DNA of 64,000 bases from Eledone cirrhosa (lineage: Eukaryota): assembly GCA_964016885.1 (NCBI GenBank), contig OZ024743.1, positions 43,276,001 to 43,340,000 of the forward strand. The letters are read 5' to 3'. Each line of letters starts with the position of its first letter. The first letter of the stretch is position 1. Made by a program: the position numbers and the translations under genes. The notes beneath the pieces are model-generated. The model did no database searches. It had not been told where the DNA came from and saw only the letters and a list, made by a program, of their open reading frames with translations. Positions 2,472 through 59,100 of this stretch are shown piece by piece.

Positions 2472-5400
2472 CTACAGGCTGATGTAGAGAGAAGGCCCAT
2501 TCACACCGGCCATTCTCTCCACTTTCACCCACCTTTCATAAAAACGACTGGGGTGGAGCACCTCTCTCTCCATCCTGATCCTTCTTCCGAAATGATATCG
2601 GAAGAAACGGAGCAGTTGTTGGCCAGAGAGAAGGGTGCCTGACCTCAATCCTTTTAGACGCGTCCACCATACAACCTCTTTGACCATGGCTATTACGCAC
2701 AGAAACACCACCTCTCCTTGAATTTTGAAGGGGAGAGGCGACTTAATCGTTACAATGGCCTCAGTGGTCAACCGGATCGGTCCCACCCGTGACAGCAGTC
2801 GTTCGACATAGCCCTACAGATCGGCTTCGCCCGAACAGTGTACCATTGCGTGTGCAACGGTTTCCTCTTCGCACACGCATCTGGGACAGATCTTTTTGGC
2901 GGAGTCCCTACCCGGGCACACGTGTCTAGAACTTTTCTCGAACGGGTAGAGCCCCTCGGTATTACTGCCAGGCCAGGGACTTCTGGAAGTTGTCCATAGG
3001 TCCCGGGCTGAATGTCCTTCCGAACAGGCTGGCCAGTTCATCTTCCTCCATGTCTAGGGCTTCTCCGAGGGCGTCGTCGCACCTGTTGCGTACCAGCCCT
3101 CTATATAGAATGTCGAGGTGGATCTCCACTGATAATCGGGTCTGCCTGCCAGAGGGCCGTCAGCGCCTTGGCACACTCAGTGTGCCAGGCGCCAAGTGTT
3201 CTCGGTCTTTGCTTGACCCAGGATTGCAACTCGGTGAGTGAGACGAGTCTGGGAAAGGTTCGTCTCACAAACGGGGCCTACACCGGTTGACCGGTGAGTA
3301 ATACTTGGAGGTGCCGTAGCCTTAATGCGTGTTTACGCATCATTAGCCACGGCATCCCCAGCCCTCATTTCGAAGGGTGTTGACAGCAGATGGATCTCCT
3401 CACCAAAGGATCCCGCTTCTTCCAAAGGAATTGGAAGAGTTTGCGCTCCATCTTGGCGAGGGTTTCCCTTGGGTAAGGCACGACGGTCAGTCGGTAGTAG
3501 ATGACGGACTCTATATAGGTATTCGCCACCTTCGCCCGACCTTTCAGGGATAGTTCGCAACTGGCCTACTTCTGGGTCAGAGCAAACACCCTGTTCGTAA
3601 CCTCACCCCAGCTCTTGCTACCTGGAGGTCTGGTCCGAACCAGACACCGAGCAACTTCACCGGGCCCTCCGTCCAGCGTCCGACGACGCCATCGGAGGGC
3701 ATCGGTTTGCTCCTCCTCGTGCCGAGTTACAAACCTATTGACTTGTCCTGGTTCAGATTAGCCCCATAAACCTTTCGTACTACTCCAGTAAGGTGCCGAT
3801 CATCCCGATTTCGGAGGCCGTCGACACCATTACTGTCATGTCATCGGCGTAGGCCGACACGGCTTTCCGCTATCCCGGTTCCAAAGGGATGCCCTGCAAC
3901 AACTCCAACTTCCGCAGTAGTGGCTCGAGAGACAATACATACAGAAGGAAGGAGAGAGGGCACCCTTGTCGGATGGAACGCGCGATTTCGAACGGCTCAG
4001 AGAGGTAGCCATTCACCTTGACTCTAGAGCAGATGCGGCTGCTGAGCATAACTTCGATCCAGCCCCTGAAAACGGGTCCGAAGCCTGCCGCCGCTAGCAC
4101 CGCATCCAGGTAGCCATGGTCGACCCTATCGAACGCCTTAGATTGATCCAAGTTGATCAGGGCCCCACGAACGCAGCGTTCGATCCCAACCCTCTCTATG
4201 ATGTATCGCATGAGGTTGGGTTGTCATGGATGGACCTGGATTGGATAGCACATGTCTGCGCATCTCCCACCAGGTTGCCCACGACAAGCGCCAACGTCTT
4301 TGCTAACACCTTGGCCAAAACCTGTAACTCTATATTTAGCAGAGTTATGGGCCTGAAGTTACTTATTTCGTACCCTTGTTCTTGTCCTTCCTCACTAGCT
4401 GACTACGCCCTTGGTCACAGAGCAGGGAATTCTCCCGTTCTGTTGCCAGTTGCAGTAGACCGCCTCGAGGAGATCGGGGAACAAGTCCGGCATAGCTAGA
4501 TATAGTTCGTATGGAAGACCATCGAGACCCGGGGATTTGCATTTGCCGCTTTCGCTCAGCACGTCCTCTATCTCAGCGGCTGAAATCGGCTACACGCAAG
4601 ACTCCGCCTCCTCGCCCGAAAGACGCGGCAGGCCGTCGAGGTATGGACCGAAGTCCACTTCCCCAACCGACTGCCCGCCCCTTCCGAACAATCGGGCAAA
4701 GTGCCTTTGAAAGGCCTCACACATCTGCTTAGGTTCAAGGACCGCCCGTCCATCCTGGTCTCGCAAAGGCCGGATGGTGGATTTAATTCCACTCTTGACT
4801 TCTGTCACGCGGGCCCAGCTAACAGCTTTGGTCCCCTCGTTTCCTAGAGCACGTATTTTACTTCGGACAACGCAGCCTTCGTGCTTCGCGTCGAAAAACT
4901 GGCTCAAAGCCGTTCTCGACGCTAGCACTCTGTCCACGTCGCCGCTTCTAATTGCCTCTTCTACTCTATCTATCAGCTCCCTTTCCTTCCTATTCCTATC
5001 CGCGGCTAGAACCTTACTAAATACTATCGAGACAAATCTAATCTCTCTCTTTAGAGATACCCTCTACCTGCTGTTGACGATCGCTCCAGTCAACCGCTCC
5101 TTAACTAACGTACTAATCTGGTCCCTGTTAGATTTACTTGCCTGGAAGGATAAGTTCAGCTTCCAGTAACCGGGACCCTGTCTATGCGTTCTATCAAGGT
5201 TGACCATGCAGGTCACTAACTTGTGGTCTCAATAGCCAACCATGAGCATTTCTGGACAACTTAAAAAGTCCTTGTCCTTATTTCTAACTAAGAACATATC
5301 TAGGTACGATCTAGATTGACCACTGCAGTTTGTCCAATACTTGGTTGGCACAGTCAGAAAATATAGTCGAAATATATCGGCCAGGTCAAATAAGCCGAGT

Positions 5401-5904
5401 AACTCCTTGAGGCTGTTACACCCCTCTCTATTGGGACATGCTCCTGCATAGTCCCAACGTGCATCCAGGATATCATTCCAGTCACATACTAAAAGCAGGG
5501 AACGTGACGTCCCTAGAAAAGACTCCAGACGTTGGAAGAAATCGGGCCGCTCTGTCACAAAAAGGGCATATGCGGCTAACAGCATAAAGGCTCCACCTTC
5601 ACCACTGCCAAGATACAGCACCACCAGTCGACCCCCTTGGGCCAAGTGAACTATCTGTGTGGCGAGAACCAGATGTTTTTGCAGCAGAACGACACCCACA
5701 CCCCCACCTCCGGGCTGGCAGAGAGATGCGTGCACCTCAAAGTCATCAAAGATGGGAGGCTAGCTGTCTTACGCTGTTGATTCGGGCCTCGCAGATAACC
5801 ATCATATTTATAGATCGTGACCTGAGGTCATTTAGAAGCATTGCTTTCTTCCAAGGTGAGCCCAGGCCACGCGCATTTAGACACCCTACTCTCAACACAG
5901 CCAT
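2472..5904 (-). pseudogene. Tx1 ORF2 (APE-RT-zinc finger), multiple frameshifts and stops
   Basis: ORF fragments 5746..5928, 5229..5735, 4590..4937, 3870..4211 and 2472..2786 align in order with the 1068-aa ORF2 at 32723..35929. Confidence 0.9.
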
Positions 5905-5928
5905 GTTGGTGGTAAGGAGAAAAGGCAC

Positions 5929-7699
5929 TTACCTCACTGCGTCCCGGGGAGCGGGCCGCTCAATTTCCATGAGGATGGGGGATGGGTTGCTGGGTGGGGT
6001 GGTGGTTTGTGGAAGTGCTGGGACATTAGTGTGTTGTGGGGTTGGGGTGTTTGTTGTTGAGTGGGTGTCTGGGTAGGGGGTGGGGATATTTTTTAGGAGG
6101 ACGCGGTTGATTGACTTGGTACATCGGGTCCTCCGTGAAATTTATTTTCAATGTTTTAAATAAGTTCATTGGGACTTTAATCATTTTTAAATGAGGTAGC
6201 CCCACGGCAGTTAGAAAGTTAGGCCCTTCAGTTTGGACCCTAGGGTTTGATGAAATTGTGTTCATTAGTTCGTTGTTGTTTGTGTTGATGTATGTATATT
6301 GTAAAGTCTTTTTTTGCGTTACAGTTTGTATTGTGTGAAGAGGAGGGGTGGTTTGTATATAATTTGTTTTCTCTTGGGGAGGGTTTATGTTAATAAGTGT
6401 GTCTGTGGTGCGCCTCATCTTCTTTCTTTTTACTATTTGGAAGGGATCTGTTTCGTCTTGCGAGGAAATGGGTTCGTCTTCCTTGTTGGATGGGAGGGGT
6501 ATATTTTCTGGTAGTGTTTGCGGTGTGTGTGTTTTTGTATTTGTTTTGCATGGGTAGGGTTGGGTGGGACAGTGTTCTGTGTTGTTTTTTCACGTTTGTT
6601 GTTGTTGTGGTGGTGGTGTTGTTGGTTTTTGTTGTTGTAGTTGTGGTTGTTTTTGTTGTTGTTGTTGGGGTAGTGGTGATGTTGGTTGTTTTTGATGTTT
6701 TTAGGGTGTTGGTAATAATGTTTTTTTCGGTGTAAGCTGGGGACAGGCAGCCATCAGGTGACCACTGTCGCCACATAGGTAACAGGAGGGACGCCTACCC
6801 TTCACATTAATGTTGAGGTGGGTACGGTCATCCAGCATGACGCCTTCAGGGATTTAGGCGATACGTTCTGGCCTTATTTGGGTCAGAACTTCAATGCTCG
6901 TTCCACTGAACGCTTCCACGTTGAGGAAACCAGTTAGTAACCACCAGTAGTCTATGTTTGGGGTGATAGTGCTTATCCAAATTCTTTGCTTTTTTTTACC
7001 CATGTAGGTTTGAAAAAAGGTGTAATGCGTGGAACGAATTGCCGACACAGAGTATCTTTTCGCCGCCAAATCATCTTTCATCAATATGGATAAAGTCCCA
7101 TAAAGTTTATCCTTTTGTATGAAAATTATAGCTTTCATAGCCTCTTTCAGGACCAACTGAATTTCAGCTTGAGACGGGTGTGTTGGTTTTCTTGTTTTGT
7201 TGACAATTGTACGGAATACACCCGTTCGTAATTCCGTCTGTTTTATAGTCCTGGGGGCGAATTGATGGAAAAAGATCCATTTTCGCCATTTTTTTTTGGC
7301 TTTTTCAAGCATTTCCTTAGCATTTGTTATATCCTCAAGCACATAGGTGACTGATTTTTTAGCAGTCTGTGCAAAGGATATTTTGTTTACGTCGTTGGTG
7401 TTTGAGTTGTTCTGTTTCTCGTTGTTCTGTTTCTCGTAGTTTGAGTTATTTTCATTTTTGTTGTTGTCTTTCTCATTGGGTGTGTTGGTTTTCTTATTGT
7501 TAGTGTTTCCGTTGTAATTAATTGGTATTGCACCCGTATTTACTTGTTTGTCCGGCATATCGCCTTTTACACTGTCTTTTAAAACGTTGACGCGGGAAAG
7601 CAAAGCGCTTTGTACCGCTTGCTTCTTTCTTTCTTCTTTCTTAGTGAGCGTGGCGTTTTCCTTCATTCGGGCTACAGACATGGCGTCAATTTTTGACAT
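5929..7699 (-). pseudogene. Tx1 ORF1 (gag-like), frameshifted
   Basis: ORF pieces 6854..7765, 6390..6776 and 6026..6418 are homologous to ORF1 at 35963..37870 (Asn-rich N-terminus, SFA motif, YGTLSIL, YMGKK, WWLL). The last frame ends ...MEIERPAPRDAVR*. Confidence 0.8.
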
Positions 7700-13560: not shown

Positions 13561-14437
13561 ATTGCTCACTTATCACTTTATTTGAATTTAGAAATAACAA
13601 GATGGTTTCCCATTGTTAAGCCTTATTTGATGTTCCTATAAACTAGAGAGTCATTGGTTGTATTAAATAATTTTACTATAATATTAAAGAGTTTTTCTAT
13701 AATATGGATATTAGAAAACGGCTACATTTTATGAATTTCGAAATTTAAATAAAAGGATAAAATTAAAACTATTTAATATATAGAAACTTGTGTAAATATT
13801 ATACATACTAGCAGAAAAACCACCTAACGGGTGGTTTTCTGCTAGCCTATATAGTGTGCATATTAACATTATACGGAAGTATATATGCATGTCGATATGA
13901 TACATCAAATAAAATCGTAATTGACAATATACACAGTAATTAAACGAAGACTGAGTTACACTGTCGCAGGTAATCAGAAACATAATCCATGATATATTAA
14001 AAAAGACAATTTTATATATAAACTGCATTAGGAGAAAATTGTGACGGAAATATATGAATGTTTATTTAAGCAATCGCTAACCGGAAGTCTTGACATTTGA
14101 ATATGTTAAAGAAGTGAATATTTAAATAACCAATAAAATATATTTAATCAAAAGCTATGAAATTTAGCAGATACATTATGTAATATTAACTTTGCCTTTC
14201 ATCCTTACGGGGTCGATAAAATAAAGTACCAGTAATGTACTGGGTAATTGCTGGTCTTGTGCCAAAAGTAGAAACAATTATTTATTCAAAGTAATCCAAC
14301 TTATTTTACAAACGGGATAAAAAATTATATTCTGGTTGCAGTCCCGCACTACGTTCTTTATTATAGTTAAGATTTCAATTCAGTAAATGTAAAAGACGTT
14401 GATCATGAACAGTCGTTGGAGCTCCAGATTAAAAGTC

Positions 14438-17400
14438 CCTGAGTAAATTTAATAATCCCAAATCTTGGTTGTCCATCGTAAACGATGATGACATCTTCTT
14501 TATTGTTGTACCCGTCTGCCGTGGGCACGAAGGTGGCTGTGGAGGCCAATCCTTGACGTGTAGGTCCGGTGACAGTGGGGGCAGGTGAAGAGACCGGAGT
14601 CGCTTGGGGCAGCTGCTGATGCATTTCTCCCCTTTTCACGGGCCTCAGTGACCTCTGCCCGTCTCTTCTCTTCAAAATAGTCTTTGGCGCGTCTGGTAAG
14701 GGCATGCCACTCAGTTCTGTCCTGAACATGGTACTCGAGGTGTTTTGGGGCAATTCCAGTGTTGTTGATATTGGACTTCACACAGTCTTTCAACCTCTTG
14801 AGAGGCCTGCCCTGCTTTCGTTTCCCCGAACAGGGTTTCCCATGCATCAGTTGCTTCGGAAGTCTGTGATCGTCCATCCGGATGACATGTCCCACCCATC
14901 GAAGTCGGCTCTTCAGTATCCTGGCGTTTATCTCTTTGTCGAGGCTTCTATCGCTGCTGATGACAATGCCAATGTACTTGAAGTCGTCCACCGTCTTTAG
15001 CTGGGTGCCTCCGATGGAGATGGAAGGAAGGTGGGCAACGGATGCAGGTGCAGGCTGTAACATAACCTCAGTCTTTCCAAGGCTAATTGTGAGACAGAAG
15101 GGGCAGGAGGCCTCCGCGATCTTGTTAACGATGACTTGTAGGTCAGACCCCCTGTGGGCAATGAGGCCACAGTCGGCAGCAAAAGGTGATTCCAGTACGA
15201 TCCTCTGCACGGTCCTTGTCTTGGCCATCAGGCGCCGCAGGTCAAATAGGGAGCCGTCCAGTCTGTATCGCAGATACACGCCATGCTCGAGGTCACTGAC
15301 GACATGATAGACCAGGCAGGTGAAGAACAGGTTGAACAGAACGGGAGCCAGCACGCATCCTTACTTGACGCTGCTTGTGATTCTGAACGGCTTCGATTCC
15401 TCTCCGCCAGAGCGCATCTGCCCGTCATGTCGTCATGGAATTGCCGTATCAGGTTTACGAACTTGGTCGGGCATCCAAACTTCGACAGGATCGACCAGAG
15501 GGCCTCCTTGTTGACAGTGTCAAAGGCTTTCGTCAAGTCTATGAAGACGGCAAAGAGGTCCATGTTCTGCTCGACTCACTTCTCCTGCACCTGGCGTACA
15601 TAGAAGATCATGTCGATCGTGCTACGGTTTGGGCGGAACCCACACTGGGCCTCAGGCAGGTTGTCCTCCGCGATGCTGTCGATGATGCGGTTGATAATGA
15701 CCCGAACTAGGACCTTCCCAGCGATGGACCGGAGAGAGATGCCCCGATAGTTGCCACACTCAGTTTTGCTGCCTTTGTTCTTAAAAAGCGAGACAACTGT
15801 GGCATCCCTGAAGTCTTTGAGCACCTCTTCTTCCTCCCATATGCTGGCGAGGAGGGTGTGGAAGTCCCCCAGAGAAGCTGGATCGACCGACTTGAAGATC
15901 TCGGCAGGAATCCCGTCCCTCCCAGGAGCCTTTACTCAGCTGGGATGGTTGATTGCCTTCGTGACTTCATCCAACGTGAGAATGAGGTCGAGGCTGCCAA
16001 CTACGGGTTTCTGTGGGATCTGGTCGAGGGCAGCAGGGTCGACAGTGTAGGGCCTGTTGAGCAGGTTGCTGAAGTACTCTCTCCACATCGAGTTGATGCA
16101 GCTCTCCTCCTTCAGCAGGGTCGAGCCGACAGCAGACAGGAGTAGTGTAGTGACAGGCTTGGGGGTACGTAGACGTCCCCGATGGTGTTGAAGAATATCC
16201 TGGAGTTCTTTGTGTCAGCGTATCTCTCAGCATTTTCGACCTTCTTTTCGCACCACCCGTCCTGAATTCTGTGTAGCGCTGTTTGGGTCTGCCTCTGGAG
16301 GTGTTTAAAGCGATCGCACTTCGAGGTGGAGGAGCTGTCATTCTGCCACTCAAAGAAAGCCCTTCTCTTTTCGTCCAGGAGTTGTCTGATGCGCTCATCG
16401 TTTTCATCTAACCAGTCCTGGTTGACTCTCTTCCTCGTCCCGATGGTTGTCTTGGCTGACTCTGTCACCAGCGACCTGAACTGGACTCACTGTTGAGTTG
16501 GGGGTCCGGTCAATGGTCCATGGGCAGTCAGCCGGCCGTCCAGGTCTTCCGCGAACGCATCACGATGCTCTGTCTGCTTGAGTCGTGCGACGTCGAAATC
16601 TGGCCTACAGTCTTGCGATGCGGCGGGGTGATGTGCAGTGACAGGATGGTTGGTCCAACACTCTGCACCACGCATGGTCCTGGTGATTCTGACGTCACGA
16701 AGGTCCCTCCTGCGGCATATGGCAAAGTCAATCAGATGCCACTGTTTGGATCTGGGGTGCATCCATGTCGTCTTGAACTTGTCTGCCTGGCGGAACAGTG
16801 TGCTGGTAAAGGTGAGGTCGTTCTCGGCGCAGAAACTCAACAGTATGAGGCCATTAGAGTTCAGCCTCCCAGTGCCGTGAGGTACCAGTACGCCCCTCCA
16901 GTTGCTGCTGTCAGACCCGACTCTTGCGTTGAAGTCCCCCAGTAGGATGAGTTTATCGCTTGGGGGCACGCCCTTCTAGAGTGCGTTGATTTCCCCGTAG
17001 AAAGTGTCCTTTGCTTCATCGCTGCAGGTGAGTGGGGGCGTACGCGCCAAATATGTTCGGGTTTAAAAACCCATTATCAAGGGAGAATCACATTGAGAGG
17101 GATTAAGGACCGCAGATGACTCGTTAGGAAGGCAGATTTAAGGTAAATGAAATAAAAAGACGTTAAATTTCCGAGAAGTTGATGTTAACATGCTCTTTAA
17201 TAGGGGAATGCAATGTCGAATAGTGCAGCCTATGGAAAATAGATTGCACCTGTTACATTCCAGCCTGTAGACTACCTGCCTTGTTAACAGCAACTTCTCG
17301 AAATGTTAACGTATTTTCGTTTGATTTAACTTAAATATGCCTTCCCAACAAGTCATCTCCGATTGAGCCTTTAAATCTCTCACTGGGATTCTCCCATGAA

Positions 17401-32240: not shown

Positions 32241-32510
32241 ATAATAATAATAATAATGATTTCATTTATTGGCCACAAGGGCCGACATATAGGGGACAAC
32301 ACAATAGACAGGGACAGTGGGGGTTTACATAGAGATCGAGTAAGTATAAATAACAAAAAAACAAAATAACAATAAAAATACAACAATGAAAGTTCCCCAA
32401 TAAGAGGGATCACCACCCAGGGTTGACTCAAGCACCCCACCAGTCCTGAGCCACCCGACGCTCCTAGGGCACCCGGGAAGGGCACCCCTCTCCTTCTCGA
32501 ATTCACCAGC

Positions 32511-35500
32511 CTACAGGCGCATGATCAGAGTAGGCCCACTCACGCGGGCCATTCTCGCCACATTCACCCACCTTTCAGTAAATGTACTGGGGGGCAGCAC
32601 TTCTCTCTCCACCCTCACCTTCCTTTCCAAGTGAAACTTGAAGAAGTTGATGAGGGATTGGCCGAAGAGAAAAGTGTCTGTCTTCAGTCCTTTCAACCTG
32701 GTCCACCATGCAACCTCTTTCGCTACTGCCACCAGGCAGAGGAAAATTGCCTGCCCTTCCTGACCAAAAGAAGGCGGCGGTCAATCTTCACTATGGACTC
32801 GGACGATAGCCGGATCCGTTCTACACGCGACAATAGCTGTTCGACATAACCCCACAAGTCAGCAATGCACGGACACTGGACGAGTGCGTGCAGAACGGTT
32901 TCGTCGCTCTGCGCGCATCTCGGGCAGGTTCGTCTGACAGCACTTCCGTGCCTGTAGAGTTTATCCCGAACCGGCAGCGCCCCCCGGTAGCACTGCCAAG
33001 CGAGGGATTTCTGGAAGTTATCCATCGTCCCCGGCTCGAAAGTCCTCCGGAACATACTGGTCAGTTCTACTTCGTTGACGCCCAGAGCCTCTCCTAGTAC
33101 GTCATCGCACTTGCCCTCCACTAATCCTCTATAGAAATCTTGAGTGGAAGTTCCACTGACCGCATTGCCCACCTTGCAGAGTGCAGTGAGCGCCTGGCAA
33201 CATTCCAGATGCCAGTCGCCCAGTCTCGGTCTCTTCTTGACCCAGGACTGCAGCTCAGTCAAAGAGATGAGCTGCGGAAAGGCCCGTCTAACAAACGGCG
33301 ACCACACCTGTTCACCGTTTAGGCAAAATATCTGGAGATGTCGCAGCCTCAGCGCATGTCTGCGCATCATTAGCCACGGCATGCCCAGCCCTCCACGAAG
33401 AGGGTGCTGGCAGCAGATGGACCGCCTCACCAACGGGACCCGTCCCCTCCACAAAAATTTGAAAAGGAGCCGTTCCAAATTGGCGAGGCGTGGACGGGGG
33501 CAAGGCACGACGGTCAGGCGGTAGTAGATGACGGACGCGATGTACGCGTTCGCCACCTCCGCCCGCCCTTTCAGTGATAGCTTTCTCTCAGCCCATTTCT
33601 GGGTGAGGTTGGCTATCCTGCTCGTCACCTCGTCCCAATTCTTATCCACCTGGAGGTCTGGTCCGAACCAAACCCCGAGCAACTTTACCGGTCCGTCTGT
33701 CCAGCGCCCAACGACGCTGTTGGACGGCATGGACTTGCCTCTCCAGGTGCCGAGCTGCAAGCCCACCGACTTTTCCGGGTTAAGTTTTGCTCCCGTCAAC
33801 CTTTCATATTCCTCCAAATGGGTGCGGATCACCTCGATTTCCGAGGTGTACGACACCATCACGGTGATGTCGTCCGCATAAGCGGACGCAGCCTTTCTAC
33901 GTCCCGGTTCGAGCGGGATGCCCTGCAACAACTCCAGCTTCCGCAGTAGAGGCTCAAGAGTCAATACGTACAGAAGTGAGGAGAGAGGGCACCCTTGACG
34001 GACCGATCGAGAGATCTGAAACGGTTCCGAGAGGTGGCCATTAACTTTGACCACCGAGCGGATGCCGCTGTACATTGCAGCGATCCAGCTTCTGAAGACG
34101 GGGCCGAAGCCAGCCGCCTCGAGGACAGCCTCCAAGTACCGATGGTCGACCCTATCGAATGCTTTCGATTGATCTAAATTGATCAGAGCCCCACCGAAGC
34201 CAGGTTTGCACCCAACCCTCTCTATGATGTATCGCATGAGGTGGAGGTTGTCGTGTATGGACCTGGTCGGGATTGCGCAAGTTTGCGCCTCCCCAACCAA
34301 ATCTTTGACGACAAGCGCCAATCTTTTCGCTAACACCTTGGCCAAAATCTTAAACTCTGTGTTGAGCAGGGTTATGGGCCTGAAATTATCTAGTGTGTCC
34401 CTCTTGTTCTCGTCTTTCCTTATCAGCGTCACTACGCCACGGCTCACAGAACTGGGAATGCTCCCGTTCTGCTGCCAGTTGCAGTAGAGCGCTTCGAGGA
34501 GATCGGAGAACAAGTCTGGCATATTTACGTAAAGCTCGTAGGGCAGACCATCCAAACCGGGTGACTTGCGACTCGAGCAGCCGACAAGGGCGTCCTGAAT
34601 TTCGGCTGATGTTATCGGCTCTTCGCAGCGCTCAGCGTCGGCCGTCGAGAGGCGTGGCAAGCCGTCGAGGTAGGGACTGAAGTCCGCCGCCGTCTCCGAC
34701 TCACCCATCCTCCCGAACAATCGAGCAAAGTGCTGGCGAAAGGCCTCACACATCTGCTTGGAATCGCTCAGTTCGTGTCCATCTCGATCCGTCAAAGACC
34801 GAATTGTGGTTTTATTTCCACGCTGCGTCTCTGCAAAGCGAGCCCATCGGGCAGCTTTGGTTCCCTCGTTCCTCAGAGCACGCGCCTTAGCTCTGACAAT
34901 GCAACCTTCGTGTTTCGCATTGAAGAAATGGTCTAGTGCCATTCTCGCCGCTAGCACGTCTGTTGCAATGCCACTACAAATAGCCTCGTCTAACTTAGCT
35001 ATCAGCCCCTCCTCTTTTCTATTTTTCTCTATTGCTACTTCTTTGCTAAATCCTATCGAGGTTGCTCTAATCTCTCTTTTGAGTGCCCCCCACCACCTGT
35101 TGTTGACAACCCCCCCTGTCAACTTTTGCTTAACTAAGTTGTTGACCCGGTCCCTGTAAGCTTTACGTGCCGGAAACGACATGTTTAGCTTCCAGTAGCT
35201 AGGTCCTAACCTACGTGTCTTATCTAGGTCGACCATACAGATCACAAGCTTGTGATCTGAATAGGCAACCGTTTTAAAATGTGGACATCCTACACTATTT
35301 CTATCTCTTTTCCTAATGAAAATCCTATCTATGTACGATCTAGATGACCCTATGCGATTGGTCCAGGTCCATACTGGCGCATTAGGGAAATCTAGTCGGT
35401 ACCTGTCAGACAGTTGAAACTGGCTGATCAGGTACTTGAGGCTTTTGCACCCCCCGCTCCTATCAGATACTCCCACACAATCCCAGCGTGCTTCTAAGAT

Positions 35501-35929
35501 GCCATTCCAATCCCCTATTAACAGTAAAGGGCGAGACGCAAGCAGAAAGTTTTCCAGGCGCCTAAAGAAGTCCGGCCGACCGGCCCCAGTAGGGGCGTAG
35601 ACGGCCACCAGTCTAAAGGCACCACCTTCGCTATTGCTCACGTCCAGGACCACCAACTTTCCGTCAGGATCCCGGAAGATTGACCTTACCTCGAGATCCA
35701 GACATTTCCTAAACAGCACAGCCACTCCACCTTCCATTCCCGGCCGACTAACAGATGCAAAGATCTGATAATCGTCGAAAATCGGCGCCAGTGCGCGTGT
35801 GTCGGAAATTCTGGTCTCGCTGATGGCAATTACATCCATTCCTAGTGACCTGAGGTCGTTGAGCAAGTGACCTTGCTTCCAGGGCGACCCCAGGCCACGA
35901 ACATTTAAACTTCCTACTCTTATGGCCAT
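32511..35929 (-). CDS. Tx1 ORF2p: APE endonuclease, reverse transcriptase, zf-RVT (one frameshift near 32785)
   Basis: SLNVRGL, ISETR, GDWN, SDH; SPGLDG, NFRPITLLN, DQSKAFD, RQGCPLS, YADD; CPRC..ETVLHALVQC. The tail continues in ORF 32511..32732. Confidence 0.95.
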
Positions 35930-35962
35930 GCTGGCAGGATGAATGGGAGAGGAAAGGTTTAC

Positions 35963-37870
35963 TTACCTTCCGGGGTCTTGTGAAGGTCGGGTGGTTCGAC
36001 CTCCATGGTTTGTGGGGTTTCTTTTGGGAACCCCTTTAATAGTCTTGACGTGGGTTTTACGTTCGGGGTTCCCACATCCCGAGGAAAGCTCTTTCGAATT
36101 TCTTTGTATGAAGCGCAGCGACATTCGCATCAGAAGCAAATTATCTGGTACGCGAAATGTGCTCGCTTCAAATGTTTCCCCGTCTTTTTCGATGTTTGTG
36201 CTTCGTGCTACATGGGCCATCAATTCCTTGTTGGCCCTTCTGGCAAGCACGAAGTTTTTAATGTTTTGTTGCTCGGGTTTTATTTGTTCGTGTGATTGTG
36301 GTGGTGATAGCTTTGTTAGTGTTGTTTCTATTGTGTCTGCGTTTGTTGTGGGTGGGGTGTCTGTAGTTTCTGATGTTTGTGTGTCTATTTGTTCTTGTGT
36401 CTGTTTAGCTTGTTTGCGTTTGGGGGATTTTGGTGGTTGTGTTGGTGATGCTGTGGGGAAAATGTTTGTGTGGGTGGTGTGTGTATTTTTTTTTGTGGGG
36501 GTGTTTGTGCTTTGTGGATTTCTTTTTTTTTTGTGTTTTGTTTTTTGTATTTTGGGGGACTTTGGTTTTCCCTCATCTTCACTGCTGGAGGATGAGGGGT
36601 CTGTGGCTGTGAGCGTGTTTGTGTCTGAGTGAGTGTTTATGTTCTTGTTCGTGTGTGTATTTTGGGGGGGAGGGGGGATGGGAGAGCTTTCCTCGTTTCC
36701 CCCCTGGGTGTGCAATTTTGGTGGTTCCATTGTTGACGGTGTTGCTGGTGGTCCTTGTCCCGGCGTCGCCAGCAGTGGAATCTTTCGACCCCTTGCGCTT
36801 TTCGGCAGTTGAGGGCAGAAGGCTCGCAAGTGTGTCGTTTCCCCACAAAGGAAACAATGCGGCCTTTTGCCCTCAGTCATTATATGCAACATCCTCCCGT
36901 TTTGGAGGCGGATGTGGTCCGGGATTGTTTTTACGTTTTCGGGTCTGATTTGGAGCAGTATCTCCAGATCAACCCCGGACCAGTCGTCCCTGGCAGTTCT
37001 CGTTGCCTCTACCGGGACTGTATCCGTTCCTTCCACGATTACGCAACCCAGGAGCCACCACATATCAAGTCCTGGTGGAATCCTGGGAATGCGCACACGT
37101 GCTATTCGTTTTCCCATGTGGGAGGGGTACATTATGACCTTGCTGGTTTTGCAAGGGGTCATTGAATGCTTCACAGCGAGGGCTTCAGACTTGAACAGCA
37201 CCGAAACGGTGCCGTATTGCCTGCCCCTCTCTATGAAGTCTGTGTCCTCTCTGATGTATTTCAGTGCGGCTTCTATGTCAGCTTGGGCGATTATCGCTGC
37301 CCTCTTTGTCTCTACTGAGATGCATCTGAAATGCACCGTTCTTTTTTCCACTGCCTCAATGGCTTCTGCCGGGACAGTTAAGTTTGCCCAGGTCTGCTCT
37401 TGATTTATGATTTTCCAGGCCTGGGCCAACTTTTCCTCTCTGTTGGTTAAGTCGATGCTGTAGCATGGTCTCCTTTTAGCCGCTGCCACAGCAGCGAAAG
37501 TGTTCTTGTTGGTGTTGTCACTGTTGTTGTTCTTGTTGGTGTTGCTGCTGCTATTGCTGTTGTTGTTCTCCCCTGTGTCGTGGTTACCCTCTGTGCTGTT
37601 GGCCTTGTTGGTGCTGTTGCTGTCGCTACTATTACTCTCTCTGCTGTTCGTTTTGTTGGTGCTCTCGCTATTACCACCTTCTGCGCTGTTCGGCTTGTTG
37701 GTGTTAGTGTTGTCGCTGTTACCACCTTCCGCGCCGCTCGGCCCGTTGGTGCTGGCACTGTCGCTGCTCACATTCGTGCTGGTGGCGCTCCTCGCCTCAC
37801 CTCTCCTCTCAACGCTCAAGTCGCCGTTGCACGACAGCAGGCCCGCCTCTAGGGGGCGTGGCTCCGCCAT
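35963..37870 (-). CDS. Tx1 ORF1p: Asn/Ser-rich N-terminus, RRM-like region, CCHC zinc knuckle, Thr/Pro linker, C-terminal domain
   Basis: CFLCGETTHLRAFC fits CX2CX4HX4C. A 1-nt frameshift near 36110 is probable: the other frame gives YKEIRKSFPRDVG, matching YTNIKTKFPNAVG of T3, and ends ...KTPEGK* at 35959. Confidence 0.9.
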   Translation of the reverse strand: MAEPRPLEAGLLSCNGDLSVERRGEARSATSTNVSSDSASTNGPSGAEGGNSDNTNTNKPNSAEGGNSESTNKTNSRESNSSDSNSTNKANSTEGNHDTGENNNSNSSSNTNKNNNSDNTNKNTFAAVAAAKRRPCYSIDLTNREEKLAQAWKIINQEQTWANLTVPAEAIEAVEKRTVHFRCISVETKRAAIIAQADIEAALKYIREDTDFIERGRQYGTVSVLFKSEALAVKHSMTPCKTSKVIMYPSHMGKRIARVRIPRIPPGLDMWWLLGCVIVEGTDTVPVEATRTARDDWSGVDLEILLQIRPENVKTIPDHIRLQNGRMLHIMTEGKRPHCFLCGETTHLRAFCPQLPKSARGRKIPLLATPGQGPPATPSTMEPPKLHTQGGNEESSPIPPPPQNTHTNKNINTHSDTNTLTATDPSSSSSEDEGKPKSPKIQKTKHKKKRNPQSTNTPTKKNTHTTHTNIFPTASPTQPPKSPKRKQAKQTQEQIDTQTSETTDTPPTTNADTIETTLTKLSPPQSHEQIKPEQQNIKNFVLARRANKELMAHVARSTNIEKDGETFEASTFRVPDNLLLMRMSLRFIQRNSKELSSGCGNPERKTHVKTIKGVPKRNPTNHGGRTTRPSQDPGR

Positions 37871-38103
37871 GTTTTTTTGAGAAAAAAATTATTATTTTTT
37901 TCAAAATAAAGTTCAAATATTTGGGCCAAAAGGCCCAAATATTATGAGTTATTCCTTCACAGGATACAAATTAATGTCTTATAATGCTTCAGCGGTACAA
38001 AAAATAAACAATTCTCTACAATTAATCCTCAAAAATTGCTTACTCACGGAGCTTCAAAAAACGTACATCCACTTTCGTCAATAATAATAATAATAATAAT
38101 AAT

Positions 38104-41100
38104 GATTTCTTTATTAACCACAAGGGTTTACATAAAGTAGACATTAAGGACAGTGCAGGACAATACAGGACGGTACAAATAGGCATTTCTGAGTGTAAAA
38201 AACAAAAACAGAGGATGTAACAAAAAATAACAATGAAAAATTCCCCAATAGGGGGGGGGGGGGACTTCGGAGGGACATTTGTGGAGAAAGCCCAGTAAAA
38301 GGCCACAATGACCCTGACCAACAACGCAAGTGCCCTCTCCCAGTTTTCCACCTTTAATTTACAGATATATACTCAGAGTAGGCCCATTCACTCGGGCCAT
38401 TCTTGCTTCTCTCACCCATCTTTCAACAAAATGCTGGGAAGAGAGCACTTCCCTCTCTACTCTGATTTTCCTTTTCAAATGAAATTTGAAAAAGTCAATC
38501 AGAGCAACACCGAAGAGGTAAGTGCTCGTCTTCAGCCCTTTCAAACGTGTCCACCATACTATCTCTTTCGCCATGGCCACCAGACAGATAAAAACTGCCT
38601 GCCCTTCCCGGCTAAAGGAGGAGGGCGGGGCAATCCTCACGATGGACTCAGATGATAGCCGGATCCGTCCTAAACGCGACAGCATGTGTTCGACATAAAC
38701 CCACAAGTCAGCAGTTTTCGAACACTGGACGAGTGCGTGCAGGACGGTTTCGTCGCCCTGCGCGCATCTCGGACATGCCCGGCTGACGGCACTTCCATGC
38801 CTGTAGAGTTTATCCCGAACTGGCAAGGCTCCTCGGTAGCACTGCCAGGCCAGAGATTTCTGGAAGTTGTCCATAGGCCCTGGCCCGAAAGTTCTTCCGA
38901 AGAGATTGGCTAGTTGATTTTCGTCGACGCCTAGAGTTTCCCCAAGTACGTCGTCGCCCTTCCTCTCCACTAATCCTCTATAGAAAGCCGAGGTGGAGTT
39001 TCCACCGATCAGATTGCCCAATTGGTCGAGGGCTGTGAGTGCCTGAAGACATTCCAGTCTCCAGGCGCTCCCTCTCGGTTTCGCTTGACCCAGGACTGCA
39101 GATCCGTCAAGGAAACGAGCTGGGTAAATACGAGTCTAGCAAACGGCGACCACACCTGATCACCGTCGAGTAAGAGGTGGAGATGTCCAAGCCTGAGCGC
39201 ATGTACGCGCATCATCAGCCACGGTATGCCCAGCCCTCCACGTAGCGGGTGTTGACAACAGATGGACCGCCTGACCATCGGAGCGCGTCCCTTCCACAAA
39301 AAGCGAAAGAGCAAACGCTCCAGCACAGTTAGGCGGGGCTTAGGACAAGGTACGACGGTCAGGCGGTAGCAGATGACAGACACGATGTACGCGTTAGCCA
39401 CCTCCGCTCGACCTTTCAGGGACAGCTTCCTCTCCGCCCATTTCTGGGTGAGAGAAGCCACCCTGCTCGTCACATCGTCCCAGTTTTTGTCCGTCTGGAG
39501 GTCCGGACCGAACCAGACCCCTAGCAATTTAACCGGTCCGTCCGTCCAGCGTCCGACGACGCTGTTGGACGGCATGGACCTGGCTCTCCAGGTGCCGAGC
39601 TGCAGGCCCACTGACTTCTCCTGGTTGATCATTGCTCCTGTCACCGCTTCGTAGTCTCTTAGTGTAGTGCCGATCGCCTCGATGTGTTTGGCGTTAAAAA
39701 ACCACTACGGTGACACGGTCCGCATATGCTGACACGGATCTTCCGCATCCTAGTTCGCACGGGACGCCCCTCAACGTCTCCAGTTTGTGCAGTAATGGCT
39801 CGAGAGTCAATACGTACAAGAGGGACGAGAGGGGACATCCTTGGCGGACCGAGCGCATGATGTTTTAACAGTTCCGACAGGTGACCGTTCACTCTCACCA
39901 CAGAGCAGATATCGCTGTGCATGGCAGCGATCCAGCCTCTGAAGGCGGGCCCAAAGCCAGCCGCCCTCAGGACTGCCGCTAGGTAACGATGGTCGACCCT
40001 ATCGAAAGCTTTCGACTGATCTAAATTGATCAAGGACCCACCCGTGCCAGGTTCCCTAGGTACCCTATCTACGATGTATCGCATGAGGTGGAGGTTGACG
40101 TGGATGGATCTGCGGGAATGGCACATGTCTGCGCCTCTCCCACCAGACCACCAACGACAAGCGCCAACCTCTTTGCTAGCACCTTGGACAACATCTTGAA
40201 CTCTGTGTTTAGCAGAGTTATGGGCCGGAAATTATCTATGTTATCCCCCTTGTTTGGATCCTTTCTGAGCAGTGCCACCGCTCCTCGGCTCACAGAACTG
40301 GGAATTCTCCCGTTCTGTTGCCAGTTGCAGTAGACGTCCGCCAAGAGGCCTCAGAACAAGTCTGGCATCTGTACGTAAAGTTCATAGGGCAGACCATCCA
40401 AACCAGGCGATTTACCCCTTGTGCAGCCAGTCATTGCCTCCCTTACTTCAGCGGCTGTTATCGGCTTTTCGCAACACTTCGCCTCAGTGGCCGAGAGCCG
40501 CAGCAGTCCGTCGAGGTAGACACTAAAGTCCATCCCTCGACCCGGCCCACCGCTGCCCCCGAACAGCTGAGCGAAGTGTCGCTGAAAAGCTTCACACATT
40601 TTCCCGGGATAGAGTAGCATGCGCCCGTCGTGGTCCACCAAAGACCGGATCGTAGCTTTGTTGCCACGACGCGCCTCCGCCACTCGGGCCCATTGAACGG
40701 CTTTCGTCCCCTCGTGTCTGAGAGCACGCACCCTAGCTCTGACAACGCAGCCTTCGTGCTTTGCATTGAAGAATTGGTCAAGGGCCAATTTCGCCGCAAG
40801 CACGTCGGTCTCAATGCCTTTGCTAAGCGCCTCGTCTAATTTTCTAACTAGATCTCCCTCTGCTCTATTTTTCTCTATTGCTAAAGCCTTACTAACCCTA
40901 ATGGATTCTATTCTAATCGCTCTTTTCAGAGCAAACCACCAATTGTTGTTGACGATGGCCCCCGTCAACGCGCGCTTAACTAGTTCGCTAATCCGGTCTC
41001 GGTAGGCCTTGCGCGCTGGTAGGGACGCGTTTAGCGTCCAGTAGCCGGGTCCTCGTCTATGAAGCCTATCTAAGTCAAGCACACAGATCACGAATTTGTG

Positions 41101-44100
41101 GTCCGTGTAGCTGACTATCTTGAATTGTGGACAGCCTATGCTAGACCTATCTATTTCCCAACAAAATACTCAATCTAGATATGATCTGGATGACCCTATG
41201 CAATGTGTCCAAGTCCACATTGGCACATTCGGGAAATCCAATCGGTACCTGTCAGACAGTTCAAAACGCCTGAGCAGGTTGGTGAGGCTCTTGCACACTC
41301 CACCCCTATCCGCTAATCCCACACAGTCACAGCGTGCATCTAAGATCCCGTTCCAGTCGCCCACTAACACTAAACAGCGGGACGTTCCAAGAAAGTTCTC
41401 CAGACGCCGGAAGAAATCAGGCCGCTCTGCTCCTGTCGGGGCATAGACGGCCACTAGCCTGAAAGATTGCCCGTCTCCGCTGGTCACGTCCAGTACCACC
41501 AGCTTACCCTCTGGGTCCAGGAAGATGGCCCGTATGGCGAGATCCAAACCTCTCCGAAAAAGCACAGCAACTCCTCCCCCGATCCAGGACGCCTGGGTGA
41601 TGCGTACACATCGTAGCCGCCGAAGATCGGTGCGAAGGCCCGTGCTTAGGAGATTCTGGTCTCGCTGATTGCCACTACATCTATGTTTAGTGACCTGAGG
41701 TCGTTGCACAGGTGACCCCGCTTCCATGACGACCCCAAGCCACGCACATTTATGCTGCCTATTCTGAGTGAGGTGCAGGATGGTTTCGTCGTCCTGCGCG
41801 CATCTCGGACATGCCCGGCTGACGGCACCTCCATGCCTGTAGAGTTTATCCCGAACTGGCAAGGCTCCTCGGTAGCTCTGCCAGGCCAGAGATTTCTGGA
41901 AGTTGTCCATTGTTCCCGGCCCGAAAGTTCTTCCGAAGAGATTGGCTAGTTGATTTTCGTCAACGCCTAGAGTTTCCCCAAGTACGTCGTCGCTCTTCCC
42001 CTCCACTAATCCTCTATAGAAAGCCGAGGTGGAGTTTCCACCGATCAGATTGCCCGATTGGTCGAGGACTGTGAGTGCCTGAAGACATTCCAGTCTCCAG
42101 GCGCTCCCTCTCGGTTTCGCTTGACCCAGGACTGCAGATCCGTCAAGGAAACGAGCTGGGTAAATACGTGTCTGGCAAACGGCGACCACACCTGATCACC
42201 GTCGAGTAAGAGGTGGAGATGTCCAAGTCTGAGCGCATGTACGCGCATCATCAGCCACGGTATTCTCAGCCCTCCACGTAGTGGGTGTTGACAGCAGATG
42301 GACCGCCTGACCATCGGAGCACGTCCCTTCCACAAAAAGCGAAAGAGCAAACGCTCCAGCACAGTTAGGCGGGGCTTAGGACAAGGTACGACGGTCAGGC
42401 GGTAGCAGATGACAGACGCGATGTACGCGTTAGCCACCTCCGCTCGACCTTTCAGGGATAGCTTCCTCTCCGCCCATTTCTGGGTGAGAGAAGCCACCCT
42501 GCTCGTCACCTCGTCCCAGTTTTTGTCCGTCTAGAGGTCCGGACCGAACCAGACCCCTAGCAATTTAACCGGTCCGTCCGTCCAGCGTCCGACGACGCTG
42601 TTGGACGGCATGGACCTGCCTCTCCAGGTGCCGAGCTGCAGGCCCCCTGACTTTTCCTGGTTGATCATTGCTCCTGTCACCGCTTCGTATTCTCTTAGTG
42701 TAGTACCGATCGCCGCGATGTGTTTGGCGTTCGACACCACTACGGTGACATCGTCCGCATATGCTGACACGGATCTTCCGCATCCTAGTTGACGCGGGAC
42801 CCCCCTCAACGCCTCCAGTTTGTGCAGTAATGGCTCGAGAGTCAATAGGTACAAGAGGGACGAGAGGCGACATACTTGGCGGATCGAGCGCATGATGTTA
42901 AACGGTTCCGAAAGTGACCGTTCACTCTCACCACAGAGCAGATGTCGCTGTGCATGGCAGCGATCCGGCCTCTGAAGACGGGCCCAAAGCCAGCCGCCCT
43001 CAGGACTGCCGCTAAGTAACGATAGTCGACCCTATCGAACGCTTTCGACTGATCTAAATTGATCAAGGACCCACCGGTGCCAGGTTCCCTAGCTACACAC
43101 TCTACGATGTATCGCATGAGGTGGAGGTTGTCGTGGATGGATCTGTCGGGAATGGCGCATGTCTGCGCCTCTCCCACCAGACCACCAACGACAAGCGCCA
43201 ATCGCTTTGCTAGCACCTTGGCCAAAATCTTGAACTCTGTGTTTAGCAGAGTTATGGGCCTGAAATTTGCCGGGGATCGAGTAGCATGCGCCCGTCGTGG
43301 TCCACCTAAGACCGGATCGTGTCTTTGTTACCACGACGCGCCTCCGCCACTAGGGCTCATTGAACGGCTTTCGTCCCCTCGTGTCAGAGAGCACGCACCC
43401 TAGCTCAAACAACGCAGCCTTCGTGCTTTGCATTGAAGAATTGGTCAAGGGCCAATTTCGCCGCAAGCACGTCGGTCCCGATGCCTTTGCTAAGCGCCTT
43501 GTTTAATTTTCTAACTAGTTCTCCCTCTGCTCTATTTTTCTCTATTGCTAAAGCCTTACTAAACCTAATCGATTCTATTCTAATCGCTCTTTTAAGAGCA
43601 AACCACCACTTGTTGACGATAGAAACCGTCAACGCCCGCTTAACTAGTTCGCTAATCCGGTCTCTGTAGGCTTTGAGCGCTGGTAAGGACGCGTTTAGTT
43701 TCCAGTAGCCAGGTCCTCGCCTATGAAGCCTATCTAAGTCACGGACACAGATCACGAATTTGTGGTGCGTGTAGCTGACTATCTTGAATTGTGGACAGCC
43801 TATGCTAGATTTATCTATTTCCCTACAAAATACTCTATCTAGATGTGAACTTGATGACCCTATGCGATTTGTCCAAGTCCAAATTGGCACATTCGGGAAA
43901 TCCAATCGGTACCTCTCAGACAGATCAAAACGCCTGAGCAGGTTGGTGAGGCTCTGGCTCCCTCCACTCCTATCCGCTAATCCCACACAGTCCCAGCGTG
44001 CATCTAAGATCCCGTTCCAGTCGCCCACTAACACTAAACAGCGAGATGTTCCAAGAAAGGTCTCTAGACGCCGGAAGAAATTAGGCCGCCCTGCTTCTGT

Positions 44101-46652
44101 CGGGACATAGACGGCCACTAGCCTGAAAACTTGTCCGTCTCCGCTGGTCACATCCAGCTCCACCAACTTACCCTCTGGGTCCAGGAAGATGGCCGGTATG
44201 GAGAGATCCAAACCTCTCCGAAAAAGCACAGCAACTCCTCCCCCCGATCCAGGACGGCTGGGAGATGCGTACACACTGTAGCCGCCGAAGATCGGTGCGA
44301 AGCCCCGTGCATCGGAGATTCTCGTCTCCCTGATGGCCACTACATCTATGTTTAGTGACCTGAGATCGTTGAGCAGGTGACCCTGCTTCCATGACGACCC
44401 CAAGCCACGTGCATTTATGCTGCCCATTCTGAGTGAGGTCATGTTTAAAATGGTGTGGAAAAGATGGGAAAGACCACTTACCGTACATTTCGTAGAGGAA
44501 GGATGGTTTCGCCAACCCTTTTCCGTTGAATCGTCCCTTCGGCTGGTCGTCGGCTCTTCTATGAGTATGTCCGAATATACTCTCCGGTTGAGAGCCCTCC
44601 TAGGTCTCTGAAATCACCAACTGCATTGGGAAATTTCGTTTTAATGTTTGTGTATTGTTTCTGTGCTATTTTTACCAGTCTTATGTTCGTTGGCGTTTTG
44701 ATTGGTGCTGGTATTATGTAGTCGTGCTGGGAAATGTCTGTGTGTTCAATTATGTAAGTCATTAGTTTCTTGTTGTGTGTATTTACTGCCGTGCAGTTGT
44801 TTTTTCTGAGGGTGGGGTGTGGTTCTGCTATTTTCTTGTCGTTGTTGCTGGGTGTGTTTTGTTGTTGTGTTTGCGATGTTGGTGCTTGTGGTGGTGGTGT
44901 TGAAGGTGTTGTTGTTGTTGGCGGTAGGGTTGTCGCCGGTGGTGATGGTGGTGCTAGTGTGGGTGGTGATGGTGTTGGTGGTGTTGCTGCTGTGAGTCTC
45001 TTTGCAGTAGCCTTTACCCTATTTTCATTTCTTTCCTCCCTTTTCGAAGGCGACGATGCGCTGCTTCTGCGTTTGTGCCTTCTTACGAACTTTTGCCATC
45101 CCTCTCCCACCTCACACTCCATGTCTGATTCTGTGAGGTCGGGGAGGGGTACCAGCCCCACTCTTTCACTTGTTGTTGTTGGTGATGTTTGAACTGGAGT
45201 CTCTGTTGCAGCTGCATTTGGTATTGTTGTTGTTGTTGTTAATACCTCAACTGCTGCTGCTGTTTTTTATTTCCGTGGCGTGGGTATGGGTGCCACGGAC
45301 CTATCATTCCTGGTTGCCGCTTGTCCTGTTGCTGGTAGCCGTGGAGCCGGTTTCGGAAGGAGGGGGGTTTTCTCCTTTCTCAGGGTCTTCTCGTTGCAGA
45401 AGGCCCTGAGGTGAGTCTTCGATCCACAGCGAAAGCATTTCGGGCGTTTGCCCTCAACACTTATGGGCAGTTGAGTGCCGTTATCGAAGTCTATCACATC
45501 CGGGATAGCTGCGATGCACTCCTGGTTGGTTGGGATTAACATCTCAATGGAGGTGCCGACCCAATCTTCTCTTACTTTTTTCTGTACTTGCAGTACAGTT
45601 GTTTTGTCCTCGATTCCGACGAGGACAGACGCGGCCAGCCAAGAAGGGGCCATCCCGGGGGGGGGGGGGTCAGTTTGACCCTCAAAATGTTTTGCCCGCA
45701 GTAGGAGGGCACCAACACCATTTCCTCGCTCCTTAGGGTCACTAAGGATTGAGCCTTTGCCTCCTGGGGTGTGGCAAAAAGTACGTCTACGGTGGCATAT
45801 TTCTTTCCTCGGGGGATGTGCGTTTTCCGCTGCCACACAGACCCCAAGGCTTTTTGTATTTGAGCCTCTGTGGCTCTTTCAACCCTACGGGATTTTGTAC
45901 TTACTGTACGGTACGTGACCGTACAGTGCTGTTGGTTTTCGAAAAATTTTTCGGCTGCCTTGCAGATTGCTCGGTGTCCGGTTTTTGTCACCATCTTCTT
46001 CGCTTCCTCTAATTCCTCATTTGTTATGAGGATGGTTTCCAGGTTCTTTGCGATACCTGCAAACGAGATTGTTTTTTCTTTGCTGCTGCTGTTGTTGTTG
46101 TTGCTGCTAATGCTGTTGTTGTTTATGCTGCTGCTGATGCTATTGCGGCTGCTACTGTTGTTTTCCTTGTCACTGTTGCTGCTGTTATTACGGCTGCTAC
46201 TGCTATTATTCCTGACGTCAGACGAATGAAATGGGTTTTCGTATTTCCCGCACACCTTTTTCGTCGTTGTCGTCGTGGAGAAATCTTGCTCGCTTTGCAC
46301 GTGACTTTTCTTTTCTGGCGTCGCTTGCGAAAGAGAAGGGAGGGAGAGAGACAATCTTCTCTCTGCTGTAGTGACGATTGAAGAAGGAGAAGACGGAATG
46401 AGTGGGAGTGACCTATGAAAATTCTTTTTCGTAGCCATGTTTTTTTTTGTTTAAAATAAATATTGGGCACAAAACCCCAATAAGCGTTTATTTAACCCCG
46501 AAGGGCCAAATAACGGGCAGAAAGACCCCTCTCACGAGGAGGAGGGTGTTTTTGTCTACAAGTTGGTTAAAGTTTTAAACAATTCACAATTGTTATAGCG
46601 GTCAACATTTACAATACCTTACAGTGCCGAGCCTCCGTCAACCATAGCATTC
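38104..46652 (-). mobile_element. L1/Tx1-clade element copy T3 with near-complete ORF2 duplication (degraded)
   Basis: ORF1 pieces 45572..46438, 45267..45836 (CFRCGSKTHLRAFC) and 44559..45161. ORF2 copy a spans 44442 to 41774 and copy b spans 41773 to 38359. (AAT)n lies at 38080-38103 and 46653-46673. Confidence 0.93.
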
Positions 46653-58424: not shown

Positions 58425-59100
58425 AGGCTTTCGACAATTTGTTCTCTTTTTGTGTAAAGCCCAAGGTAATGCATGGCCTTTTTTTGCTGCTGCAGCAACG
58501 AAAGAGTTCTTCTTGTCTATTTTGCTGTAACCGGTTCAGTGTTGGTGATGTTATCGATGTTGGTGTTGTCGTTGTTGGTTGTGTTGTTGTCGGTGTTGGT
58601 GTTCTTGCTGTTGGCGTTGTTGAAGTTGGTATTGTTCTTGGTATTTGTTGTCGTTGTTATTTTTACTTGTGTCATTGTGATGTTGTTGCTATCGTTGTTC
58701 ATGTTGTTTGTGTCAGTGTTGCTAAATTCTTTGTTGCATGTTGTGTCTGTAATTATTTTTGTCCATAAATGCGCTTGTCCCCCATCCTCTCAACGTTTAA
58801 GTCGCTATCACAAGAAGGCAACATAGTATTGGGTCCATGTTTCGTCCATTTTTCTAAATAGGCAAGAAATGTACAAAATTCAAACATTCGGTAAAAAGAA
58901 AACGAAATATTATAAATGTTTCCCTTTACAGGGCACAGATGGGGGTGCTAAGACCCTTATTCAAAAATAATATAACAATTAATGCGAACGAAAACCTTTT
59001 GAATTGCACTATCTTTTCGGAACTCAAATGACATATTCTTCACCGAATATGGACCTGGGTGGTCATTTGAACGGAGACTGCCTCACCCCGAGCTCTCCAA
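58425..59100 (-). mobile_element. Tx1 5' fragment (5' UTR plus ORF1 N-terminus), copy T4
   Basis: CDSDLNVER, an Asn/Thr run and KNSFVAAAAKK.PCITLGFTQKENKLSKA match T2 ORF1 CNGDLSVER...KNTFAAVAAAKRRPCYSIDLTNREEKLAQA. The 5' limit is approximate. Confidence 0.75.

Follow-up and report, generated by a model that had tools for sequence, protein, structure and literature searches.

Three minus-strand long interspersed nuclear elements (LINEs) of L1/Tx1 type, here T1, T2 and T3, were analysed in a 64,000-nucleotide stretch of the Eledone cirrhosa genome (assembly GCA_964016885.1, contig OZ024743.1, positions 43,276,001 to 43,340,000 of the forward strand), which is called the window below and is numbered from its first nucleotide (nt). 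At the end of the first open reading frame (ORF1) these elements and their relatives carry a 5' splice-site motif (donor) and we are confident, judging by the sequences compared, that this donor is conserved and under constraint at the nucleotide level. It may be paired with an AG at the stop codon of the second open reading frame (ORF2), in which case part of the RNA would be spliced from the end of ORF1 to the end of ORF2 and the intron would span all of ORF2; the evidence for and against this pairing is about evenly balanced. An ORF2-long intron in three divergent elements had been proposed in a first-pass annotation made from the letters of the window. All six minus-strand sites named there were recovered, with donors at 35966, 5932 and 44481 and AGs at 32511, 2472 and 38352, as were the predicted spans of 3456 nt in T2 and 3461 nt in T1; the corresponding span in T3 is 6130 nt.

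The donor motif at the end of ORF1

The features of the three elements are the following (UTR, untranslated region; APE, apurinic/apyrimidinic endonuclease; RT, reverse transcriptase).

32262..38079, minus strand: T2, full-length L1/Tx1-type LINE of ~5.8 kb in an (ATT)n repeat, ends read by eye
38042..38047, minus strand: 5'-proximal donor-like hexamer in the T2 5' UTR, with no conserved AG before the ORF1 start
35959..37870, minus strand: T2 ORF1, 636 amino acids in the intact copy L031, with an RNA-binding-type domain and a CCHC knuckle
35961..35969, minus strand: T2 5' splice-site consensus where ORF1 ends; phase 1, the putative intron starting at base 35966
35930..35960, minus strand: T2 pyrimidine-rich spacer ending in an acceptor-like AG directly before the ORF2 start
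32511..35929, minus strand: T2 ORF2 (APE endonuclease, RT, zf-RVT), 1139 amino acids in intact copies, wholly within the putative intron
32511..32535, minus strand: T2 putative acceptor, the TAG stop of ORF2, moderate score, rank 16 of 264
32262..32510, minus strand: T2 3' UTR, putative exon 2, ~240 nt
2472..5932, minus strand: T1 putative intron, donor in phase 2
38352..44481, minus strand: T3 donor (44481, phase 2) and AG (38352), the latter 7 nt past the TAA stop

T2 is flanked by (ATT)n on both sides, and the poly(A) signal of its 3' UTR lies at 32270-32265. The window copy of ORF1 is frameshifted by a private extra base at 36116, which is missing from 49 of 49 alignments across the place, and ORF2 is one base short at 32781. 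At the family level T2 ORF1 ends in ..TPE-G-K-stop with the donor in phase 1, as had been worked out earlier by repair of the frame, and the gap from donor to ORF2 start is 37 nt. T1 is a decayed copy of an older family (~89% identical to its best relatives). The phase-2 donors read in T1 and T3 hold for their families, in which the ORF1 stop lies inside the donor. The T3 of the window (38352-46652, minus strand) proved to be composite: two ORF2 copies of the T3 family meet near 41773, where the first, which has an internal ORF2 deletion near 43264, breaks off, and the second carries the 3' UTR. Although its two sites lie where they had been placed, they consequently come from different insertions and the 6130 nt between them do not make up a single intron; the distance from donor to acceptor in intact copies of the T3 family is ~3.46 kb. 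Likewise, each of the three elements does have a donor, but they are related to one another (ORF2 ~70-76% identical in amino acids) and are not independent cases.

Further loci were sampled by the ORF2-start motif alone, and 40 stretches covering the variants of this motif, together with one T2 copy, gave 14 families. The U2-type donor consensus G/GT-RR-GT (slash, exon-intron boundary; AA, AG or GA at +3/+4) was found 25-55 nt before the ORF2 start in all 14 families, and in 28 of the first 30 loci chosen by the ORF2-start motif only. Positions -1, +1, +2, +5 and +6 were all invariant across nine control families, while among the ORF2 sites of the same nine families, which served as a neutral comparison, invariance was seen at 52 of 200 four-fold and at 64 of 180 two-fold ones. 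This gave a rough P of 0.024 for +1, +5 and +6 alone, with frame changes not counted in. In phase-2 families the ORF1 stop lies within the motif and could account for +2 to +4. The motif was however kept in phase 1 (T2, T2b, T2c, g and a young i subfamily, the phase of T2c being assigned by homology) and in phase 0 (f), and at least four ORF1 frame changes between phases 0, 1 and 2 were counted with the donor retained on the ORF2 tree, in which family k filled 42% of the columns. Retention of the donor through frame changes and invariance of these sites mean that the stop codon alone is no explanation. Conservation beyond stop-codon constraint, one of the points on which the first-pass annotation had said its proposal could fail, was thus seen in 14 of 14 families and in three phases. 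Counted over the entire window, the donor 7-mer was not enriched (12 occurrences as against 8.1 expected), so the signal lies in position and conservation and not in count. Among distant ORF1 proteins (28-47% identity, compared as proteins only) some terminate here with G-K-stop or G-K-S-stop and others continue through G-E or G-K, which is the translation expected of a phase-1 donor.

In family f (L108, L112, L134-L136, L157, L212, L214-L218, L220, L230, L241) ORF1 runs in phase 0 through the donor and ends in a TAG; this stop overlaps an ATA where ORF2 starts, and there is no ATG at that place. The arrangement suggests coupled stop-restart at a non-AUG codon in this young family.

The ORF2 stop codon as a candidate acceptor

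The ORF2 stop was TAG in 13 of the 14 families, and the family with TAA has an AG 7 nt further on; a single substitution at a two-fold site does not reach significance. When AGs were ranked by an ad hoc, untrained score, one clade of eight families had the AG of the ORF2 stop at ranks 1-4 among 259-282 AGs. No conserved branch point was established across the families. Frame matching is the better clue. When the donor was joined to the terminal AG, 10 of 16 subfamilies met a stop in the phase of their ORF1 after at most three extra codons, often with the same R-stop restored, compared to a background of 6.9% (193 of 2816) at other 3' UTR positions; seven copies that had no homologous 3' end or were recombinant there were omitted. 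The young i subfamily, which moved to phase 1, has an immediate phase-1 stop in its 3' UTR, and in five families on the T2/g/k side the phase-1 stop stands at one of two positions and is written with three different codons. Spliced T2 ORF1 is predicted to end in G-W-stop. The in-frame Trp expected earlier for all three elements is not general, as most families would yield R-stop, G-stop or V-stop. The terminal TAG and the nearby in-frame stops are suggestive only, fitting use of the acceptor without proving it.

An ORF1 model of Octopus sinensis in RefSeq (P0007, XP_036364761.1, protein only) ends in G-K-K-W-K-Q-N-stop, resembling both the W-K frame at the start of the 3' UTR in the T3 and g families and the W-K of the first-pass prediction; its family was not found in the E. 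cirrhosa genome above 40% identity. Two further protein endings, P0101 and P0107, were set aside as they fit spliced and unspliced readings alike. An alternative acceptor at 32572, prompted by a contig start at 32574 in sequencing run X4, was dropped since other families share sequence from ~32577.

In the splicing model, the most probable of the readings compared, U1 would bind the donor at the end of ORF1 and a fraction of transcripts would be spliced to the AG of the ORF2 stop, removing ORF2 and giving a short ORF1 message of ~2.4 kb that would keep both UTRs. The intron-retaining RNA would be the source of the ORF2 protein (ORF2p) as well as the transposition template. Such splicing might serve to produce an excess of ORF1 protein (ORF1p) over ORF2p, and would spare the ORF1 message a long 3' UTR. 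In its widest form, in which the whole octopod L1/Tx1-type clade treats ORF2 as a retained intron and donor and stop-codon acceptor have co-evolved with the ORF1 frame to give a dedicated ORF1 mRNA, we hold the model as apt to be right as wrong. Spliced RNA would presumably be retroposed only seldom because no ORF2p would be made from it in cis; as the 3' UTR would be kept, retroposition in trans is conceivable.

Genomic copies precisely lacking ORF2 were looked for with ten donor-side, acceptor-side or junction pattern searches in families T2, A, T1, T3 and i, and all 25 matches were point mutations, slips, deletions or truncations. For T2, the one family with a counted denominator (343 exon ends), there were no exact junctions, no exon ends with a base other than T at +2 (0/343) and no foreign sequence before exon 2, and two +3 variants at the exon end were point mutants. 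Families A, T1, T3 and i gave 0, 1, 7+13 and 2 matches, all of them slips, deletions or truncations. A locus joining the middle of ORF2 to the T3 acceptor (L181) has no donor at the break and was rejected as a microhomology deletion. Strong cis preference of ORF2p would explain the blank search. In contigs of four of the five listed sequencing runs, all of unrecorded kind and none on record as RNA, that were placed on T2, none of the 15 joints listed was 35967-32510, with 2092 further joints unlisted. Run X4 has unbroken contigs over the donor (35435-36010) and the TAG (32270-32574), and the depth of its ORF1 contigs is about nine times that of the contig over the donor. These X4 data were not used as evidence, because contigs give no RNA level, the run is perhaps not RNA, and oligo-dT capture of the A-rich ORF1 would mimic the difference in depth.

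Several results weigh against splicing to the ORF2 stop. No precisely ORF2-less copy came out of the genomic search, which the first-pass annotation had proposed as a check, and in human L1 spliced copies are left behind where ORF2 is retained (PMC5860796). In the other six families (the T2/T3 clade, with T2 and T3 included) the ORF2-stop AG ranks only 16-66, in keeping with the earlier caution that the acceptors were weaker evidence than the donors, and in 6 of 16 subfamilies splicing would lengthen ORF1p by 5 to more than 70 residues. The test for in-frame stops was devised post hoc, and its P weakens to between 0.0007 and 0.11 once families are collapsed to clades. The G-K of P0007 could equally be read-through of an unspliced donor. 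Finally, a second donor-like site lies 25-70 nt from the 5' end in most of the families in which that end is readable, with no conserved AG before the ORF1 start. The proposal of ORF2 as an intron thus retains its conserved donor and a near-universal TAG often followed by a stop in the ORF1 frame, but lacks a spliced genomic copy.

Other roles for the motif

Splicing-independent U1 function, absent from the first-pass account, is a serious rival to the retained intron. U1 small nuclear ribonucleoprotein bound to the donor without splicing, together with the 5' site, would keep the transcript from being cleaved too early at poly(A) signals, both in the A-rich ORF1 and in ORF2 (telescripting), so that full-length RNA is made, and the TAG would merely be a stop. 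We consider this possible, though rather unlikely. The second donor-like hexamer, found at 38047 in T2 and 7831 in T1 (minus strand) and in L127, L129, L132, L133, L135, L150, L153 and L159, favours such a role since it has no matching acceptor. In 12 of 16 representatives there are poly(A) hexamers 70-360 nt upstream of the donor at the end of ORF1, the failure to find a spliced retrocopy is in line with telescripting, and U1 plays this second role in the Arabidopsis element EVD (PMC5580714). Telescripting does not however account for the tie between the donor and the last codons of ORF1, nor for stops in the ORF1 frame right after the ORF2 TAG, and ORF2 holds only 0-2 poly(A) hexamers per family. 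It is also compatible with splicing, as one U1 site does both in EVD (PMC5580714).

A further alternative, which we regard as improbable, is that the donor is joined to another acceptor, be it in a downstream host exon, in a neighbouring tandem copy or at an AG within ~35-55 nt in the spacer or at the ORF2 start, or that a 5' UTR donor is joined to the spacer to give an ORF2-only RNA. In the T2 and i families the AG with the highest score directly precedes the ORF2 start, as does the second-best of k, and the elements do occur in tandem arrays. An AG before the start codon is nevertheless absent in most families, and introns of 36-55 nt are short for animals. Donor-side searches that ignored the acceptor gave no joined copy, the 5'-donor retrocopy search gave 0 matches and the search for the spacer acceptor gave one candidate (L242). 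A strong acceptor-like site just before the ORF2 start was noted at 35932-35931 in the window T2, in family i (L143-L146, L158-L160) and in family k (L149); from the 5' donor, it could give an ORF2-only RNA of the type known from human L1 (PMC2896524).

That the motif has no U1 function at all, being an inherited Arg or Gly codon plus stop or a translation re-initiation signal that resembles a donor, would fit the shared ancestry of the families, the unenriched 7-mer and the phase-2 families, where +2 to +4 form the stop and the variants observed match the three stop codons one for one, but is very improbable given that phase-1 and phase-0 families retain the motif without its being a stop there, that the untranslated +5/+6 are invariant while the spacer varies in length and sequence, and that distant ORF1 proteins end as donor read-through would.

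Classification, known systems and significance

The elements are L1-group APE retrotransposons of the non-LTR kind (LTR, long terminal repeat) by the domains of ORF2, the domains of ORF1 and their ends. T2 ORF2 matches PF03372, PF00078 and PF13966, and its nearest solved relative is human L1 ORF2p (E 9e-57, as against 3e-22 for R2). ORF1 look-alikes bear zf-CCHC and ZCCHC3-type RNA-binding domains, and the T2 ORF1 sequence itself has no Pfam match. There are no LTRs, while a poly(A) signal, a simple-repeat tail and 5'-truncated copies are present, all traits of L1-group non-LTR elements. Tx1, as against L1, is a provisional label, taken from the first-pass annotation and the anatomy of the elements. 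The microsatellite-targeting APE LINEs Kibi and Koshi are placed in the Tx1 clade. They too insert into short tandem repeats and have two ORFs, and splice sites are not mentioned for them in the text consulted (PMC3812793). The targets here are (ATT)n, which flanks 20 of 20 T2 copies and indicates repeat targeting, and (ATCT)n; the choice is split by clade, with the T2/T3 side in (ATT)n and the T1/e/f/h/i/l side in (ATCT)n (L031-L050 and L127-L160, respectively). A head-to-tail array of about ten T2 copies at ~5.83 kb spacing with short (ATT)n joins was seen at G000:C1:423,365,000-423,418,500 (L041), and different families also succeed one another within the same repeat.

The T2 family is young, its copies being 98-99.7% identical; 343 genomic copies have the exact 16-mer of the T2 ORF1 end, and ORF2 is open over 1129-1139 amino acids in 18 of 20 fetched copies. 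The clade as a whole has 12,301 matches to the ORF2-start motif in the genome. Named ORF1 homologs were from Octopus and Argonauta, a profile-free ORF1 search being considered for the best 150 of 231 matches, and the other homolog searches with ORF1 gave no matches. A metagenome scan gave two weak loci, neither with a usable ORF junction, and searches for more distant families led only to the same clade again.

Elsewhere in the window, the 5' UTR and ORF1 start of a further element of the clade were read by eye at ~58480-59080 (minus strand), where they are cut off by an RT fragment on the opposite strand. A decayed LINE of another clade, presumably RTE-like, lies at 14400-17000 (minus strand) and is 23-26% identical to T2 ORF2. 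Two overlapping frames of 374 and 200 amino acids with a Cys-rich N-terminus occupy 55680-57378 (minus strand) and are taken by us to be transposase-like. The C-terminal part of a plus-strand frame at 742-1650 looks like what we assume to be a remnant of a GIY-YIG (Penelope-type) endonuclease.

The closest functional parallel is the gag-only RNA of Drosophila copia and plant Ty1/Copia elements, in which an otherwise retained intron removes pol and the short RNA makes structural protein; in Drosophila copia the intron is ~3 kb and the 3' end is normal (PMC5580714, PMC11835246). Those are however LTR elements with a single gag-pol frame and proven junctions (PMC5580714, PMC11835246), whereas the present ones are bicistronic LINEs, known from sequence alone, in which ORF1 has its own stop and the putative acceptor is the ORF2 stop codon. 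The likeness is functional only, since by their LINE anatomy the elements are not members of Ty1/Copia. Donors and acceptors within an L1-group element are known from the human L1 products SpORF2 and SpIRE, with the donor in the 5' UTR; there the 5' UTR or ORF1 is removed, ORF2 is kept and spliced genomic copies are left (PMC2896524, PMC5860796), while in the present elements it is ORF2 that would be lost, and the search for spliced copies was blank. HAL1 is likewise an ORF1-only product of an L1-group element but forms a separate non-autonomous genomic family (PMC5753468), and no ORF1-only family with the present junctions was found in this genome. The introns of TART are antisense, and the same paper names introns in L1, Tad, kangaroo-1, Penelope and Athena transcripts (PMC1636488). 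An octopus repeat annotation lists 13 recently active L1-Tx1 families, with no mention of 'splic' or 'intron' (PMC13282606), and 'splic' does not occur in a review of non-LTR protein biogenesis (PMC3894237). No report of an ORF2-spanning intron in LINEs was found in the literature covered, which left out most subscription papers, Repbase reports and supplements.

The ratio of ORF1p to ORF2p in LINEs is usually discussed as a matter of translation. A conserved intron spanning ORF2, if true, would add a switch at the level of RNA, which host splicing could set tissue by tissue; in this group of animals, the expression of LINEs in neurons is being discussed (PMC13282606). Counting RNA-seq reads over ORF1 or the 3' UTR would in that case give too high a figure for the RNA competent for mobilisation. 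If the motif acts through telescripting instead, LINEs with two U1 sites under selection would offer a direct way to test whether transposons use telescripting as a strategy.

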